Translations under genes and position numbers: made by a program
NCBI GenBank assembly: GCA_944392885.1
Contig: CALXYG010000035.1
Span: 652-64,651, forward strand
Direction of reading: 5' to 3'
DNA from: an uncultured Clostridia bacterium
GTDB lineage: Bacteria > Bacillota > Clostridia > TANB77 > CAG-508
DNA length: 64,000 bases
Shown: piece after piece, positions 16,884 through 44,989 of the stretch
Layout of the letters: each line of letters opens with the position of its first letter
How positions within the stretch are numbered: position 1 is the stretch's first letter
Notes under the pieces: model-generated
Seen by the model: only the letters and a program-made list of their open reading frames with translations
Databases searched by the model: none
What the model was told of the DNA's origin: nothing

Positions 16884-17681
16884 ATGGTAAAAAAACAAAT
16901 AAGTGCTTGGGAAAAAGTACAATTAGCAAGATTGCCACAAAGACCTACATCAGAAGAATACATTTCTAGAATTTTTGATGAGTTTGTAGAGTTAAAAGGA
17001 GACCGCTATTTTGGAGAAGAACAAGCAACAATAGGAGGAATAGGAAGAATTGAAAATCAATGTTTTACTATTATTGCACAACAAAAAGGAAGAACAACAA
17101 AAGAAAACATTGAAAGAAATTTTGGAATGCCAAATCCAGAAAGTTATCGTAAGGCTTTAAGATTAATGAAACAGGCAGAGAAATTCCATAGACCAATTGT
17201 AACTTTTATTGATACTAAAGGAGCATACCCTGGAATTCGGTGCAGAAGAAAGAGGGCAACGGTGAAGCTATCGCACAGAATTTAATGCAAATGTCGAGAC
17301 TAAAAGTTCCAATTATATGTATTATAATTGGAGAAGGATCTAGTGGAGGAGCATTAGGAATTGGTGTAGGAGATAAAATATTTATGTTAGAAAATGCTAT
17401 TTACTCTATTCTTTCACCAGAGGGTTATGCTGCTATTTTATGGAAAGATGGTACAAAAGCTAAAGAAGCTGCAGAGGTTATGAAATTAACTGCAAAGGAA
17501 TTAAAAGAATTAGGAATAATTGATGATATTATCTTAGAGCCAACGCGGTGGCGCACAAAATGATGTAGAGTCTGTGGCAAAAAAGATTAAAAAGGCTATT
17601 ATAATATCATTAAGAGAATTACAAAAACAATCAGTAGAACAACTAATAGAAAATAGATATCAAAAATTTAGAAATATGTAA
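16884..17681 (+). CDS. accA: ACC carboxyltransferase alpha subunit, two frameshifts (about 17250 and 17555)
   Basis: DTKGAYPG... and [17 protein letters not shown] motifs lie in different frames. The C-terminus (...[15 protein letters not shown]...NRYQKFRNM*) is in a third frame and ends at 17681. Confidence 0.8.
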
Positions 17682-23493: not shown

Positions 23494-23570
23494 TGGTAGC
23501 GAAGGGGAGATTCGAACTCTCGACACCGCGGGTATGAACCGCGTGCTCTAGCCAACTGAGCTACTTCGCC
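23494..23570 (-). tRNA. tRNA-Met (anticodon CAT); elongator-like, could be tRNA-Ile2(LAU)
   Basis: Reverse complement folds as a cloverleaf: acceptor GGCGAAG/CTTCGCT, D-stem GCTC/GAGC, anticodon stem CGCGG/CCGCG with loop TTCATAC, T-loop TTCGAAT, encoded CCA. One A:C mismatch in the T-stem. Confidence 0.8.
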
Positions 23571-30593: not shown

Positions 30594-30788
30594 ATGCATA
30601 ATTATGGTAAGGTGATATGTGTTTTCAAAATGATTTCGTAATTTTTACCAATTATATAAAAATAATGACAAAAAGTAACCAAATATGATAAAATAAAAAG
30701 AGAAATAATTGTAGAAAAAATTGTAATAGTCTTACAAAATTATACATAATTAAAGAGTACAAAAGCAAGACAAAAGATAGGAGGAAAA

Positions 30789-31877
30789 ATGAGAGAGCAA
30801 AGAGGAGTTACTTTAACAAGTGTTGTAATTTACGTTATGGTAATGACAATTATTGTAGGAATTATTACTGCGATTACTGCATTTTTTTACTCTAATACAA
30901 CACAAATGAATGAATCTGCTACTAGTTTAGGGGAATACAATAAATTTAATACAGCATTTTTGGCAGAGGTAAAAAAGATTGATAACGAAGTATATAAAAT
31001 AGAGAATGATAGCCAAAGAATTATATTTAAATCAGGAACAATGTTTACATTTCAAGATGGGGGGATTTACCAAAATCGTGTAAAAATATGTACAGGAGTA
31101 ACAAATTGTAAATTTAGTGTTAAGGAACAAGAAGAAAAACAAATAGTAACTGTTTTAATAGAAATTGGACAAAACGCGGAATTTGCGAAAACAACAGATT
31201 ATGTGCTAGATGATACAGACTATCAAGGTAGTAATGAAATCCAACATGTTCACAATTATAAGTATTGGAGAAAGATAGATGAAACAGTTCATATAGGTAT
31301 TTGTAATTGCGGAGCAACACAAGAAGGAGAACATGAATATGGTGAATGGATACAAACAACACCAGCAACATGTACAGTAGCTGGAACACAGAGATCGACT
31401 TGTTCAGAATGTAACACTACAGTAACTAGAAGATTACCAGTTGCAACAGGACACACAGGGCAAACTCATGCAAATGGCGGAAAATGTATAAGATGTCAAG
31501 TTGTTTATGTGGCTCATACATGGGGTGGGTGGTCGAGATTAAATGATACAAGTCATATACATACATGTTCATGTGGAGTAACAGAAACTGCTACACATGT
31601 TTGGGGAGGCTGGGTACAAACAATTGCTGCCACGTGTACAGTAGCTGGAACACAGAGATCGACTTGTTCAGTATGTGGTGCGGCAAAAACTCAAAGTATG
31701 CCGGCAGCATTAGGTCATAGTTATGGGGCAGTTGGTATTGACCAGAATATCAATGGTAACCATACATTGAGATGCAATAGATGTGGCTATACTATAACAG
31801 AAAGGCACAATGCAGTATGGTATGTATATCCATATTCAAAGGTATGCTGGGCTTGTGGAGAAATGTGGTTTTATTAG
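30789..31877 (+). CDS. Pilin-like (class-III-signal-like) protein with an extracellular Cys-rich repeated module
   Basis: N-terminus MREQRG|VTLTSVVIYVMVMTIIVGIITAI resembles a prepilin leader plus hydrophobic helix but has Ser instead of Glu at +5. C-terminal half contains a repeated H-x-(W/Y)-G-x-W...ATCTVAGTQRSTCSxC unit (two near-identical copies and a degenerate third). There is also a DNA-level repeat, 31366..31440 vs 31624..31700. Confidence 0.6.
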   Translation: MREQRGVTLTSVVIYVMVMTIIVGIITAITAFFYSNTTQMNESATSLGEYNKFNTAFLAEVKKIDNEVYKIENDSQRIIFKSGTMFTFQDGGIYQNRVKICTGVTNCKFSVKEQEEKQIVTVLIEIGQNAEFAKTTDYVLDDTDYQGSNEIQHVHNYKYWRKIDETVHIGICNCGATQEGEHEYGEWIQTTPATCTVAGTQRSTCSECNTTVTRRLPVATGHTGQTHANGGKCIRCQVVYVAHTWGGWSRLNDTSHIHTCSCGVTETATHVWGGWVQTIAATCTVAGTQRSTCSVCGAAKTQSMPAALGHSYGAVGIDQNINGNHTLRCNRCGYTITERHNAVWYVYPYSKVCWACGEMWFY

Positions 31878-32079
31878 AAAACTGGCTACAAAAACCAAAT
31901 ACTTGATTTATATTTAACGTTTATGATAAAATAACAATGCTAAAAGCATTGTTATTTTATTGTATAGAAAAATGATTTTTATTATAGACGTATATAAATT
32001 ATTTACACATATAACAAAATTAAGCTACCTTAATTAGTATGAGCAAAGCGAGATTTGTCTTACAAAAAAGGAGGGAATT

Positions 32080-32514
32080 ATGGAAAAACAAAAAGGTGCA
32101 TCTATAGTAATTTGGATTATTGGAGTGATATTATTAGCTATAGTAATTGTAATAGCAATTCATTTTATGCAAGAAGAAATAAACAAAAATCAGCAAGAAG
32201 ATATAAAAACAGAGATGTTGCAAGTACAGGCAAAAGCTAAAATTGTGCTAGAAAAATATAATGTTGATAACAATAATGGATTAAAAGGTCAAAAAATGGA
32301 AGATAAAACATTACAAGAAAAATATGGAATTGAACAAATAGAAAACTACTATAAATGGACAAAAGAAATACTAGCAGAATTGGGATTACAAGAAACCATT
32401 TTACAAGAAGGGGAATATTATTTAGTTAACTATGATACAGAAGAAGTAATATATTCTCAAGGATATAAAGCAGAAAATGGTGAAATATATTATAAACTTT
32501 CAGAGATAAAATAG
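32080..32514 (+). CDS. Small single-pass membrane protein (possible minor pilin-like partner)
   Basis: N-terminus MEKQKG|ASIVIWIIGVILLAIVIVIAI followed by a 110-aa extracytoplasmic domain; co-directional and downstream of the Cys-rich pilin-like gene. Confidence 0.45.
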   Translation: MEKQKGASIVIWIIGVILLAIVIVIAIHFMQEEINKNQQEDIKTEMLQVQAKAKIVLEKYNVDNNNGLKGQKMEDKTLQEKYGIEQIENYYKWTKEILAELGLQETILQEGEYYLVNYDTEEVIYSQGYKAENGEIYYKLSEIK

Positions 32515-33158: not shown

Positions 33159-33224
33159 TAATGGACATTTCTCAATGATTTTTTTTACTATTGGGAAATG
33201 TCTATTTAGGTGAAAGGAGTAGTT

Positions 33225-34527
33225 ATGAATATTAAAGAAATAATCCAAAGAAAAAGGGATAGACAAGAATTAACTAAAGATGAAATTGCATATTTCGTAG
33301 ATGGATATACGAAAGGTGAAATTGAAGATTACCATATTGCTGCACTTTTAATGGCAATTTACTTAAATGGTATGACAGATAGGGAAACAGCAAATTTAAC
33401 TATGGCAATAGCAAATTCTGGAGATATTATGGATTGGCACGATATAGGTAATACAATTATTGATAAACACAGTACAGGCGGAATAGGTGACAAAGTAACA
33501 CTAATTCTCATGCCAATTATTGCATCATTGGGAATACCTGTATTAAAGATGTCTGGAAGAGGATTACGGTTTCACAGGAGGAACAATTGACAAGCTAGAA
33601 TCAATTCCTGGTTATAGAGTTAAACTAGAAAGAAAAGAGCTGGTAGATAATATAGAAAAAGTGGGAATTGCTTTAGTTGGACAGACATCAGAATTGGCAC
33701 CTGCTGATAAAAAAATTTATGCATTGCGTGACGCGATTTCTTGTGTAGATAGTATTCCTCTCATTGCTTCTAGTATAATGAGTAAAAAGATAGCTGGTGG
33801 TGCAGACAAAATTGTACTGGAAGTGACACTTGGAAGAGGAGCTTTTATGAAGAAAAAAGAAGATGCAATTTACCTTTCAAAACAAATGAATGAAATTGGA
33901 AAAATGGCAGGAAAAGAAACAATATGTATTCTTACAAATATGGACGAGCCATTAGGACGTAGTGTTGGAAATACATTAGAAGTAATAGAAGTAGTGGAGA
34001 GTTTAAAAGGAAATATAGCTCCAGATGTAGAAGAGGTTGTGTGCACATTAGGTGCATATATGTTAAAGATGGCAAAAAGAGGTGATAACATAGAGGAGAA
34101 TAAACAAAAAATACTTAAACAAATAAATAATGGAGAAGCCTTCAAGAAGTGGATGGAGCTAGTAGAAGCACAAGGTGGAGTGTTAGACTATATAGAAGAT
34201 ATAAGCTGTTTCCCAAGGGCTGCTTATGAATATACAGTAATTAGTAATAAAAGTGGAAATATTAGCAAATTAGATGCAGGAAGTATAGGAGAAATATTTG
34301 TTCTTTTAGGAGCTGGTAGAATAAAAAAAGAAGATAATATTGAAAAAGAAGTGGGAATAGTATTTCAAAAGAAAATAGGTGATAGTGTGAAAAAAGGAGA
34401 AAAAATGGCAACTATTTATGCTAATAGCAAGGAGAAAGCAGAAATAGCAATAAAAAAAGTACAAGATGCATATGAGATTGTAGATGAAAAAGTAGAAAAA
34501 CCAAAAGTTATCGTAGGAATTCTATAA
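33225..34527 (+). CDS. pdp: Pyrimidine-nucleoside (thymidine) phosphorylase, frameshift near 33567
   Basis: HSTGGIGDKVTL phosphate-binding motif. Expected [23 protein letters not shown] is broken by a 1-bp insertion (read KMSGRGLRFHRRNN*). The C-terminal domain follows in the second ORF. Confidence 0.82.
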
Positions 34528-41502: not shown

Positions 41503-44500
41503 ATGCAAATGGATGCTAGCATAAAGATATTACCCAATTTTAAAAAATACAATCAATATATAGAAGACGTAAAGAAAAACGTCAGTCCAATGATGTTATC
41601 TGGACTAACAGATAGTGGAAAAGTGCATTTTGCTTATTCTACTCATTTTTATACTGAAAGACCAATTATGATTATTACTTTTAATGAACTACAAGCTAAA
41701 AAAATAAAAAAAGATTTGGAATACTTTACAGAGGATGTACTGTTTTTCCCCAAAAGAGAAATTTTTGCTTATGATTATATTGCTGAGAGTAAGGAAATAT
41801 TTTACCAAAGAATGAATGTTTTAAACAAAATTCATTTAAAAAAAGCTAAGGTAATTGTCACTACAATAGAGGCTTTAATGCAAAAGATTCCGGCAGAAGA
41901 TGTTTTGTATAAAAATCAAATTTCTTTGAAAATAGGTCAAACAGTTGAAATTGAAGATTTAAAAGATAAGTTACATCTGATAGGTTATGAAAGATATGAA
42001 TTGGTAGAGGCAGAAGGCCAATTTAGTAGTAGAGGTGGAATATTTGATATTGCATTATCAGATAAGAAAGGTGTTCGCATAGAATTTTGGGGAGATGAAA
42101 TTGATTCTATCAGATATTTTGATTTAGCAACCCAAAGATCAAACCAAATGATAGAAACAATACAAATTAATCCTGTACATGAATTTGTACTTGAACAGAC
42201 ATTAGAAAACATATGTCAGAATATTTTAAAAAATGCTAAAGGGGATAAAGCCATAATAGATGAAGATATACAAACTATTATAAATGGCAATTATACTGAA
42301 AAAGTAGATAGATATTTTAATAATTTTTATACAAAACAAGCTACACTTTTAGAGTATATTCAACAAAACTTTATTATATATTTAGACGAAGCATCCAAGC
42401 TCAAGGCAAGATCAGAAAATATTTTAAAAGATAGTAAAGCAGTTATTAAAACTCTAATTGAGAAAAAGAAAATAGTGCCAGATAGTATTACTTTACTAGA
42501 GGATTACTATACTTTTATGGGGCATATTGACAAAAAACAAATAATTTATCTTGAAAAGCAAGATATTGGATTTATTGATAAACAAACTATGCATGCAAAA
42601 AGAAATGGATATAGCTTTAGCTATAGGGAGGTCAACTTTTTTCGTAGTTCAATGGATTTACTGTTTGAGGAAATACAAAAAGCAAGTCTAGATAAAAAAA
42701 CAGTAATTTTATTAGGTGGGAGCTTAGAAAATAGTAAAAAACTAGTAGAAAATCTAAAACAAAGAGATATACCAAATTATTTAGTAGAAAATTCAGATAT
42801 TGATATTACTCCAGGGGTGGTTATTGTAACTACTGGAGTTATTTCTAATGGGTTTGAAGCATTTGATTTTAATCTACTTTTAATTAGTGGAGAAGAGCTG
42901 TTTGCTCCACCCAAAAAGAGAAAGATCGTTTCAACAGCTTTTAAACAAGCAGAATCAGTTGTCTTTTCTGATTTAAAACCAGGTGATTATGTAGTTCACA
43001 GGACAAATGGAATTGGACAGTTTATGGGAGTTAATACTATAAAAGCAGATGGCATTATAAAAGATTATATTAAAATTAAATATCGAGATGATGATGTACT
43101 TTATATTCCAACAAATCAATTGGATAATATTCGCAAATACATAGGTCCGGGAGGCGCTTTACCAAAACTAAATCGTTTAGGAAGCAAGGAATGGAGTAAT
43201 ACAAAACAAAAGGTAAAATCAAATTTGAAAGAGGTAGCGCGAGAGTTAATTGAATTATATGCAAAAAGACAGAAAATGGTGGGCTATGCCTTTTCAAAAG
43301 ACACACCATGGCAAATACAATTCGAAGATGAATTTCCATATACAGAAACAGAAGATCAGCTACGATGTATTGAAGAAGTTAAAAAAGATATGGAACAACA
43401 AAAACCAATGGATAGGCTACTTTGTGGGGATGTTGGTTATGGCAAAACAGAAGTTGCGATAAGAGCTGCATTCAAATCCTGTATGGATCAAAAACAAGTA
43501 GCATATTTGGTCCCTACTACAGTACTTGCAAATCAGCAATATGAATCATTTAAACAGAGAATGGAGCAATTTCCAATTCGTGTGGAACTTTTGAACCGTT
43601 TTCGTACAAAAAAAGAACAAGAAGCAATTATAAAAAAATTAAAACTTCGGTGAAGTAGATGTTATTATTGGAACACACCGAATTTTAAGTAAAGATATAG
43701 AATTTAATAATTTGGGCCTGCTTATTATTGATGAGGAACATCGTTTTGGAGTAAAAGACAAGGAAAAAATAAAACAATTAAAATCAAATATCGATGTTTT
43801 GTCTATGACTGCAACTCCGATTCCAAGAACGTTACATATGTCGATAGTTGGAATACGAGACATGTCAGTTATTTATGAACCACCACAAAATCGAAGACCT
43901 GTTCAAACTTATTTACTAGAATATGATATAGAAGTAATCAAAGAAGCTATCACAAGGGAACTAGAAAGAGAAGGTCAGGTTTTTTATTTATTCAATAATG
44001 TAGAAAATATTATAAAAAAAGCAGAAGAAATTTCCAATTTAATTCCAGAAGCAACAGTAGCTTTTGCACATGGAAAAATGTCAGGTAGAGAATTAGAAGA
44101 TATTATGGTGGACTTTATTAATAAAAAAATCGATGTTCTTGTGTGTACTACTATTTTAGAGTCAGGAATCGATATTCCAAATGCAAACACAATCATTGTG
44201 GAAAACGCAGACAGGCTAGGGTTAGCTCAACTATACCAAATTCGTGGAAGAGTTGGAAGGTCAGATAGGCAAGCTTATGCATATATCACTTATAAACGAG
44301 ACAAAATGTTATCAGAAGTAGCAGATAAAAGACTAAAAGCTATTAAGGAATTTACGGAGTTTGGATCTGGATTTAAAATAGCTATGCGTGACTTAGAGAT
44401 TCGTGGAGCTGGCAGTATTCTTGGAGAAATGCAACATGGACATATGGATGAAGTAGGATATGATATGTATTGTAAATTATTAGATGAAGTAGTAAAAGAA

Positions 44501-44989
44501 ATAAAAGGAACAGAGGTAATAGAAGAGCAAGATGTGCAAATTGATTTGTCTTTATCAAGTTATTTACCAAGTGAATATATTTCAGATAATAATCAAAAAA
44601 TTGAAGTATATCAAAATATTGCGTTATGTAAAAGTGATGAAGAGATTGACAATATTAAAGAAGAGCTAATTGATCGATATGGAAAACTACCTCATGAGGT
44701 AGAAAATTTGCTGGAAATAGCAAGGATTAAAAATTTATGCAGAAAATTAGGCATTAGTAAGATTTCACAAAAAGATAAATCTATTGTATTTCATTTTCAA
44801 ATGGAATCATTTCAAATTGAATGGGTGGATTTATTACTTGAAAAATTTCGAAATCAAATTAAATTTTCACCAGGAAAGGAACCATATATTACATATAAAA
44901 TTGAAAGTCCGGTTAAAATATCAGAAAGAATTTACGATTTTATAAATGTATTACTAAAAAAATATGAAAGGAAATTGATATGCAAGTGA
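41503..44989 (+). CDS. mfd: Transcription-repair coupling factor, frameshift near 43640 in an A-run
   Basis: UvrB-homology N-terminus, RNAP-interacting domain, and superfamily-2 translocase (GDVGYGKTEVA, DEEHRFGV). First ORF ends ...IIKKLKLR*; the gene continues in ORF 43712..44989. Confidence 0.88.

Follow-up and report, generated by a model that had tools for sequence, protein, structure and literature searches.

Modular pilins have been described in Streptococcus sanguinis, where, according to PMC8179133 and PMC9934059, PilB carries a vWA module and PilC carries Ig and concanavalin-A-like lectin modules. PMC8179133 also covers the CofB/TcpB-type minor pilins of type IVb systems, which have extra C-terminal beta domains on a flexible linker, initiate assembly and are located at the tip. 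Known minor pilins that lack the glutamate at position 5 of the mature protein (Glu5) include GspK, PilA and ComGG (PMC9934059, PMC8727766). PilFind-type tools do not detect the GspK or PilX-type K subunit or S. sanguinis PilA, which were proposed as the first subunit at the tip (PMC9934059), and the function of Streptococcus pneumoniae ComGF is Glu5-independent, an E5A change being tolerated (PMC8727766). A further described system is the IgA protease (IgAse) of Thomasclavelia ramosa, in which the zinc-binding domains (ZBDs) ZBD1 and ZBD2 form elongated chains of three-stranded up-and-down sheets with predicted tetrahedral Zn sites (2 His + 2 Cys or 3 Cys + 1 His). No disulfides were seen or predicted in this enzyme, the ZBDs are dispensable for catalysis, and a role as spacer, as hinge or in protein binding was suggested by the authors (PMC12237041). 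Here, these systems are compared with the product of one gene (30789..31877, 362 aa plus stop) in a 64,000-nt window of DNA from an uncultured Clostridia bacterium. The window is a piece of contig CALXYG010000035.1 with 29.9% G+C; statements on gene content refer to the window. This gene, its signals and the other pilin-like genes described below all lie on the plus strand.

The 30789 gene product is probably a modular, Glu5-less, ComGF-like minor pilin that carries a Zn-knuckle array of the IgAse type, as judged from sequence comparison. The N-terminal module is read as a minor pilin because of the genomic context of its relatives, which was the decisive evidence. A profile of residues 1-150 was searched against 1.84 billion cluster representatives and retrieved 787 family representatives (477 at E<=1e-10); the 362-aa protein itself was matched by the family A profile at E=9.8e-54. 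About half of the representatives are stand-alone proteins of ~140 aa (many in the range 137-156 aa), and others are extended at the C-terminus by long sequences of diverse kinds (up to 1,792 aa). In a metagenome scan, 52 loci encoded a family member. The gene order was PilMN-PilO-pilin-PilD-minor pilin-(member)-PilB-PilT-PilC in 49 of these loci (tblastn), the remaining three being contigs of less than 3 kb. For example, member P0055 is flanked by a prepilin peptidase (A24_N_bact, 105 bits) and a second pilin-like gene on one side and by a T2SSE PilB-type ATPase (133 bits) on the other, and on a 406-kb human-gut contig the Pfam scores were 343 bits for PilB, 148 for PilT, 83 for PilC and 105 for PilD. 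Members of the family occupy a fixed slot in the type IVa pilus (T4aP) clusters of uncultured gut and rumen Clostridia.

Two features of these clusters were recorded alongside. Only one of their minor pilins keeps an acidic residue at mature position +5 (G↓FTMQD, G↓YSAAD; arrows mark the putative cleavage site throughout). The prepilin peptidase homologue (L004 2408-3256; L010 10319-10948; L033 8755-9555) matches the A24_N_bact N-terminal domain alone (105 bits), with no match to the catalytic model Peptidase_A24; visual inspection shows an AGID motif as well as a second Asp, and the L010 copy has only 209 aa.

The preliminary description of this DNA, made from the sequence alone, had reported a 362-aa open reading frame (ORF) with a prepilin-like N-terminus and Ser where Glu5 is expected, and such an ORF is present as described, with an identical copy in NCBI and ENA assemblies. 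The protein begins MREQRG↓VTLTSVVIYVMVMTIIVGIITAI, reading MREQRG, VTLTS, VVIYVMVMTIIVGIITAITAFF, with Ser at +5. Its predicted class III leader peptide, MREQRG (30789..30806), is short and basic and ends in Gly-1, as in type IV prepilins (MREQRG↓V); cleavage is predicted after Gly6, a residue that is invariant or near-invariant in the family and that follows Lys/Arg residues. The first part of the mature helix, alpha1-N, is hydrophobic and free of charged residues (VTLTSVVIYVMVMTIIVGIITAITAFF), and a hydrophobic stretch of ~22 residues is found family-wide. The family consensus is MK(S/N)(Q/E)KG↓(I/V)TL.(S/A)L.IY: Gly-1, Thr+2 and Leu+3 are at least 90% conserved in a 79-member alignment, and the Gly is invariant in two other alignments, one of closer and one of diverse relatives. 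The Glu or Asp expected at +5 of a type IV pilin is absent from the 362-aa protein (Ser), and the family has Ser at this position in 107 members, Ala in 14, Thr in 13 and Glu in none. The N-terminal methylation motif (N_methyl; Pfam PF07963 / TIGR02532, curated cut-off 21.2 bits) was matched at E<=1 in 42 of the 79 aligned members (best 3.8e-4).

The pilin module (30807..31223, mature residues 1-~139, Ser+5) is assigned from a predicted structure, from the family and from the pilus-cluster context, and comprises a hydrophobic alpha1-N, an amphipathic alpha1-C and a beta domain. AlphaFold2 (AF2), run on residues 1-150 with 79 sequences, gave a mean pLDDT (predicted score of the local distance difference test) of 93.1, with an unbroken 57-residue helix at residues 5-61 packed on an eight-stranded beta domain, a predicted layout that fits the pilin lollipop. 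The context in 49 of 52 loci, the conserved motif and this predicted fold together support the earlier proposal of a type IV prepilin-like protein without Glu5. The only named family matched by many members was ComGF (NCBIfam NF041002; 38 of 79, best E=2.5e-7), which resembles the present family in size (~140 aa). ComGF differs in that it has Glu5 and is encoded in Com clusters (comGA-GG), whereas the present family belongs to PilM/N/O/B/T/C clusters and scores far below the 80-bit cut-off of the ComGF model; the comparison points to a remote relation, short of membership. A search of PDB sequences with the pilin-module profile gave matches to PilA at E~1 and nothing better, and a literature search with strings of the conserved pilin N-terminus found no paper. 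The family defined by the N-terminal ~145 residues is large and previously unnamed.

The C-terminal part of the protein is a Cys/His-rich, ZBD-like array (31245..31874, residues 153-362), delimited from a map of its units, from a phmmer match to IgAse and from AF2. It holds 16 Cys and 13 His, two further Cys being located in the N-terminal module. The units are as follows: B1 and B2 (residues 153-182 and 244-270; 31245-31334 and 31518-31598; H..H.C.CG......H), A1 and A2 (residues 183-222 and 271-310; 31335-31454 and 31599-31718; W.....ATCTVAGTQRSTCS.C...........GH), C or C1 (residues 223-243; 31455-31517; H.....C..C......H), D (residues 311-340; 31719-31808; H...C..C.......H) and the tail unit E (residues 341-362; 31809-31874), with a CxxC pair and many aromatic residues. 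Ligand spacing predicts six complete sites, Cys2His2 in B1, C, B2 and D and Cys3His in A1 and A2, with the terminal CxxC left over; on this basis, we infer that the array may bind Zn at six positions. The Cys-rich C-terminal repeat announced earlier was confirmed, its consensus corresponding to the A units. These are identical at 24/40 amino acids and 85/120 nucleotides, and a k-mer scan found an exact 37-nt repeat in A1 (31371..31407) and A2 (31635..31671), the copies being 264 nt (88 codons) apart, which is far above chance for a 1.1-kb gene. The near-identical DNA copies of the preliminary description therefore exist, but the identical stretch is shorter than stated there and the intervals given were 6 nt out of register.

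The repeat had also been described as an unrecognised domain. No model for it was found in Pfam or NCBIfam, but homologues have been described: in a phmmer search against PDB sequences, the array matched residues 858-978 and 1059-1132 of the T. ramosa IgA protease (9qa6_A, E=9.2e-8) with the His and Cys columns aligned, that is, ZBD1/ZBD2, predicted zinc binders of unknown role (PMC12237041). The array belongs to the IgAse-type ZBDs by sequence homology and by conserved Cys/His spacing. Structure prediction, proposed earlier as a check, gave small up-and-down beta units like the IgAse ZBDs (AF2 on residues 151-362, mean pLDDT 78.6, above 90 in the A and B units), with Zn sites that are likewise predicted; a Foldseek search of this model against the PDB returned no significant match. 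As in the IgAse (PDB 9QA6), the units span ~30-40 residues, form three-stranded sheets, have the same types of site and are extracellular in a Gram-positive gut anaerobe. The IgAse ZBDs lie between a metallopeptidase and a sortase anchor, whereas here the array makes up the whole C-terminal part of a pilin; it is further distinguished by an 88-aa A-C-B super-repeat with copy-number variation and by a distinct, conserved CxxC/aromatic tail. The same repeat was found in many Clostridia surface proteins with signal peptides and cohesin, dockerin or leucine-rich repeat (LRR) domains. The last 47 residues are the best-conserved part of the array and might be its functional end.

The pilin module and the array are joined by a short linker (DDTDYQG..., 31224..31244), where the pLDDT drops (residues 141-150), the orthologues diverge and modules have been swapped. 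In the clade of the window, the gene is no longer part of the pilus cluster: in six of six related loci, from metagenome-assembled genomes (MAGs) of uncultured Clostridia or Clostridiaceae from gut and rumen, the gene directly follows aspS, and the pilin modules are 52-74% identical among these loci. What follows the module at the aspS locus differs: nothing in L008 (149 aa), a LamG domain in L007, L009 and P0003/5/6/7, and ZBD repeats in the window gene and in L006 (523 aa; two repeat units and a further Cys-rich region). Proteins that end in LamG instead of the Cys repeats share the first 145 residues at 61-68% identity. Comparison of these sequences shows that the C-terminus of the aspS-linked gene is a swappable cassette, which may be absent, a LamG lectin or a set of Cys/His repeats. 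The family is also fused to FGE-sulfatase-like or C-type-lectin-like domains (P0050, P0122), and the ZBD array with the same C-terminal tail is found on a different scaffold of the short-pilin type (P0004; tail 35/47 identical by manual count). The protein thus consists of a pilin module, a short linker and an unrelated C-terminal module, the arrangement that defines a modular pilin (Raynaud et al. 2021), because the pilin module stands alone in relatives, the ZBD array is found in non-pilin proteins and the modules are exchanged among orthologues.

On MAG contig NODE_129 (L009 and L010), a complete type IV pilus (T4P) cluster is present ~14 kb away from the aspS-linked LamG orthologue; between its minor pilin and pilB, where a family member is usually encoded, there is none. 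In L007, pilMN starts ~10 kb downstream of the aspS-linked gene. Because the NODE_129 cluster is without its own copy, the family member at work in these related genomes seems to be the aspS-linked gene, which would have been relocated and then decorated.

Two relatives showed further features. The P0004 gene (L017 1573-1680, L018 1279-1390) has its sole ATG out of frame with the KG↓ITLVSL pilin frame, and the shift is caused by three copies of the 10-nt unit GGAAGAGAAA, where two copies would restore the frame; the state is the same in two independent samples and could reflect slipped-strand phase variation or a non-canonical start. At L014 1524-5373 (GCA_965129625.1, CBCQWC010000023.1), a pilin-like N-terminus (...REKG↓ITLVSLVITIVIMLILAG) is fused to an FGE-sulfatase/C-type-lectin-like domain, and the fusion protein is the target of a diversity-generating retroelement (DGR): the 143-nt variable region (VR, 3227-3369) differs from the template region (TR, 3555-3697) at 17 positions, 16 of them at TR adenines, and a reverse transcriptase and bAvd adjoin the fusion gene. 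This gene is directly upstream of the partner-rnhB-pdp-sigma-beta-propeller block, which is also found after the window gene. No open paper connecting DGRs to type IV pilins was retrieved in a literature search.

As in S. sanguinis PilB and PilC, a small pilin module is followed by a short linker and a bulky C-terminal module in a monoderm T4aP system (known here from relatives); the LamG module of the window-gene orthologues belongs to the same concanavalin-A-like superfamily as the PilC lectin, and tip display and adhesion are proposed roles in both cases. PilB and PilC differ in having a canonical class III signal with Glu5 that is recognised by IPR012902, and in being encoded in the pil operon, whereas the 362-aa protein has Ser5 and a sub-threshold N_methyl match and is encoded outside a pil cluster; no sequence similarity to them was detected. 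A Zn-knuckle array is not among the module architectures listed in the available parts of PMC8179133. The protein resembles CofB/TcpB in being a single large minor pilin with extra C-terminal beta domains, but those are type IVb pilins of diderms that keep Glu5 and have other domain folds, and no similarity to the 362-aa protein was detected. The absence of Glu5 agrees with the E5-independent ComGF and with the tip subunits GspK and PilA. In GspK, encoded in an HIJK operon, an alpha-domain is inserted within the pilin beta-sheet, while the extra module is C-terminal here; S. sanguinis PilA has a GspI-like fold and differs from the present family.

Alleles of the same species encode 362 or 450 aa, and the 450-aa alleles (P0044/P0045) hold exactly one extra 88-aa A-C-B unit; the 264-nt repeat is probably where unequal recombination takes place. 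No Cys or His differs among the 362-aa alleles, so that the array's complement of 16 Cys and 13 His is constant. Six of the 8-11 ZBD substitutions fall in residues 202-214 of A1 (31392-31430), namely R202T, S206L/P, E207I, T210A, V212I and R214Q. Since this stretch of the window allele is identical to A2, gene conversion between A1 and A2 is suggested.

The 30789 gene follows aspS after a gap of 195 nt. A promoter-like site (ATGACA-18-TAAAAT with TG before the -10, 30665..30694) was found by a consensus scan, its 10/12 matches being weak evidence, and a ribosome-binding site (RBS, ATAGGAGGA, 30777..30785) precedes the start codon. Downstream of the coding sequence is a terminator-like hairpin with a 20-bp stem (31922..31964; RNA fold -21 kcal/mol, z=-4.6, none of 200 shuffles folding as well). 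From the aspS gap, the strong RBS and the 3' hairpin, the gene is its own, monocistronic transcription unit. An Rfam scan for RNA elements near the gene gave only a tRNA-Met (23494-23570).

If the protein is a minor pilin, the following course may be proposed. It would be inserted N-in/C-out, consistent with its basic leader, cleaved after Gly6 by a cluster-encoded prepilin peptidase, and would enter the pilus through its alpha1 helix; by the model put forward for other large modular pilins, its place would most likely be in the priming complex of the pilus tip. There is hardly room for so bulky a C-terminal module except at the tip or wherever the linker allows it to project, the reasoning applied to S. 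sanguinis PilB and PilC. In this position, the protein would present small three-stranded beta units in an extended row, each held by one tetrahedral Zn (~six sites), with Zn taking the place of disulfides in an anaerobe, and the array would probably serve as a rigid stalk and/or as a binding surface for a host, dietary or microbial ligand. Ligand binding is favoured by the fact that lectin modules replace the array at this very position, and a spacer by the precedent of the IgAse. The length of the array would differ between strains through unequal recombination at the 264-nt repeat. Tip display or adhesion is a tentative proposal, in which we place less confidence than in the assignment as a pilin.

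Several observations weigh against these interpretations. The N_methyl match reached 12.1 bits with the full protein and 13.6 bits with residues 1-150, below the Pfam cut-off of 21.2 bits, a failure of the signature that the preliminary description had expected, and the match of the protein to ComGF was weak (14.3 bits, E=0.035, compared with a curated 80 bits). A Foldseek search of the PDB with the pilin-module model gave no significant pilin match, the best pilus-related match being a model of the type II secretion system (T2SS) pseudopilus (probability 0.77, E=0.4, template-modelling (TM) scores 0.40/0.49). No prepilin peptidase, ATPase or platform gene (pilD, pilB, pilC, pilT, pilMNO) was found in the 64-kb window; this machinery is documented in relatives. 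The last 50 residues of the array were poorly modelled (pLDDT 50-70), Zn binding is predicted, not measured, even in the IgAse, and the dispensability of the IgAse ZBDs for catalysis, together with their proposed spacer role, leaves a binding role here speculative. Lack of Glu5 characterises the lineage as a whole and does not mark a tip position. It makes no tip argument on its own, since the putative major pilin of the lineage is also Ala+5 (74/79), and for the same reason the logic of K-type (GspK) subunits transfers poorly to this protein.

The sub-threshold pilin signatures also invite the reading that the protein is a type II signal-anchored surface protein, held by an uncleaved helix with the array at the cell surface, in which pilin ancestry is only historical and no pilus machinery is used. 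This would fit a gene that stands apart from any T4P cluster with a promoter and a terminator of its own, and elsewhere the bearers of ZBD repeats are ordinary proteins, either secreted or anchored, that have cohesin, dockerin or sortase signals; moreover, the family of the neighbouring 32080 gene (see below), in about a third of which the Gly is lost, illustrates that pilin-like N-termini of this lineage can decay to plain anchors. It is nevertheless unlikely, given that Gly-1, Thr+2 and Leu+3 are kept in the aspS-linked clade across species at 52-74% identity, that the whole 145-residue module is conserved and not the transmembrane helix alone (mean column identity 79% in the alignment of closer relatives), and that the T4P cluster of a related genome is without its own copy, the aspS-linked gene looking like the working member. 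Secretion through Sec, with a signal peptidase I (SPase-I) cut, e.g. after ITA/ITA at residues ~28-31, and a soluble Cys-rich product, is scarcely credible. A basic n-region is indeed followed by a hydrophobic region with the small residues A-I-T-A at about the right place, but the hydrophobic run of ~27 residues continues unbroken into the conserved helix up to residue 61, and the sequence after the putative SPase site (FFYSNT...LGEFNKFN..FL) is among the best-conserved parts of the family, which is unexpected beside a signal-peptide cleavage site. By inspection, the h-region of ~10-20 residues, AxA-type site and unconserved surroundings of such a signal were not found, and the PilD context of the relatives also speaks against it.

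The split genes in the window (MBOAT, feoB, fabD, accA, pdp, mfd) and the out-of-frame ATG of the related ZBD-pilin gene P0004 raise the question of whether the 30789 gene is a decaying remnant, i.e. a displaced pilin gene that was fused with a repeat-bearing fragment and is no longer functional. This is very improbable: at least seven contigs, from several samples, carry the ORF uninterrupted, the alleles vary at other positions but never at the 16 Cys and 13 His of the array, the synteny after aspS is kept in six other species, and the gene has a strong RBS and a terminator. A Glu5-less modular minor pilin remains the preferred assignment.

Modular pilins are thought to explain many of the functions of simple type IV pili, and surveys of them rely on the N-terminal methylation signature. 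The present family, with hundreds of representatives, many from human gut metagenomes, escapes this signature, and the ZBD repeats are absent from the domain libraries searched (Pfam, NCBIfam), so that pilus-borne adhesins of abundant uncultured gut Clostridia are being missed. The array also provides a second, independent setting for the IgAse ZBD fold, until now a predicted curiosity, and suggests that ZBDs have a general role as Zn-stabilised extracellular stalks or binding units in anaerobes. A wider and more doubtful possibility is that the clusters represent an unrecognised T4aP lineage of gut and rumen Clostridia, characterised by Ala or Ser at +5 (Asp in one minor pilin), a divergent prepilin peptidase and a ComGF-like plug-in carrier of interchangeable tip modules, which would include length-varying Zn-knuckle arrays, LamG lectins and DGR-hypermutated domains of the C-type-lectin fold. 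If true, such pili would display adhesins in a programmable way, in a system that current pilin signatures do not reveal. Glu5 is otherwise near-universal, and a bacterial T4aP with a main subunit that lacks it would be unusual; an Ala5 major pilin, if real, would offer a natural test of why Glu5 is so widely kept elsewhere.

Two other pilin-like genes are present in the window. The separate gene at 32080..32514 encodes a 144-aa bitopic protein (MEKQKG↓ASIVIW...), annotated as a degenerate pilin-like paralogue from its ORF, synteny and homology. The preliminary description had reported this ORF and its N-terminus, both of which exist, and had taken the product for a small membrane partner of the 30789 protein, a role that does not hold: a terminator separates the genes, and the conserved neighbour is rnhB, not the pilin gene. 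In other genomes, rnhB-pdp always follows the family member directly, whether or not a pilin gene is close by. A two-gene operon of 30789 and 32080 was accordingly rejected on the terminator hairpin and on the synteny with rnhB, and homology of the product to the Asp5 minor pilin of the T4P clusters was rejected for lack of similarity. Over its whole length, the product is 26% identical (E=4e-17) to a 153-aa protein of L016 with a clean KG↓ITLIAL leader, and about one third of its relatives are without the putative cleavage-site Gly. By these comparisons, it appears to be a diverged pilin-like paralogue that is drifting towards a plain anchor, and not a partner. At L016 5521-6513, two tandem paralogues of this family lie upstream of rnhB, one with the KG↓ITLIAL leader and the other without any Gly, a pair that shows pilin-to-anchor drift within one locus.

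The gene that begins at 63796 (63796..64000, where it runs off the window) is the 5' part of a short major-pilin-like gene by translation, MMKKEEKRKTHPKEELG↓ITLVALVITVIVLLILAG, with the leader ...EELG↓ITLVALVITVIVLLILAG and Ala+5. It had been put forward as a second paralogue; the gene and its Ala+5 are present, but it belongs to a different, short major-pilin-like family and is not a paralogue of the whole 362-aa protein. Its 79 homologues (P0196-P0274) are mostly of 70-80 aa, have Ala+5 in 74 cases and an almost invariant G↓ITLVALVITVIVLLILAG, and members are located directly upstream of pilD in T4P clusters (e.g. L010 10001-10234, L033 8257-8664). A purine-rich leader specifically shared by the 30789 and 63796 genes, also claimed before, was rejected: the 9-mer ATAGGAGGA occurs four times in the window, compared with 0.77 expected, at both pilin-like genes, at 17031 and at 59911 (just 5' of spo0A), and is a strong generic Shine-Dalgarno context. 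Three independent assemblies of the species (contigs of 64,798, 69,901 and 70,135 nt) all end within ~1 kb of the 63796 gene (window ~63600-64000), which suggests repeated sequence there on which assemblies break, e.g. conserved pilin 5' ends or purine-rich leaders.

The remaining gene content of the window (fab/acc genes, dnaG, rpoD, proS, asnS, aspS, rnhB, mfd, spo0A) fits a spore-forming Clostridia-type organism. Several housekeeping genes are split in two ORFs: MBOAT (725-2133), feoB (3303-5367), fabD (10794-11727), accA (16884-17563), pyrimidine-nucleoside phosphorylase (pdp, 33210-34527) and mfd (41503-44989). An independent assembly of the same species (L003) has pdp and mfd split as well, and pdp is likewise split in another species (L014) but intact in L016; these splits are therefore not simple assembly errors of one contig. 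The region 52442-54392 encodes a 100-aa sortase fragment and, after it, a protein of 563 aa that is Cna-B/SpaA-like by eye; it has an Asn-rich low-complexity tail and ends in LPKTGM, which identifies it as a sortase-dependent surface protein or pilin. At 5815-9125, a dockerin-bearing glucosaminidase/Big_2 protein and a cohesin-like protein with cadherin-like repeats and a C-terminal transmembrane anchor were recognised by eye; if this reading of the domains is right, the organism has cohesin-dockerin surface display. ZBD repeats elsewhere co-occur with cohesin and dockerin domains.

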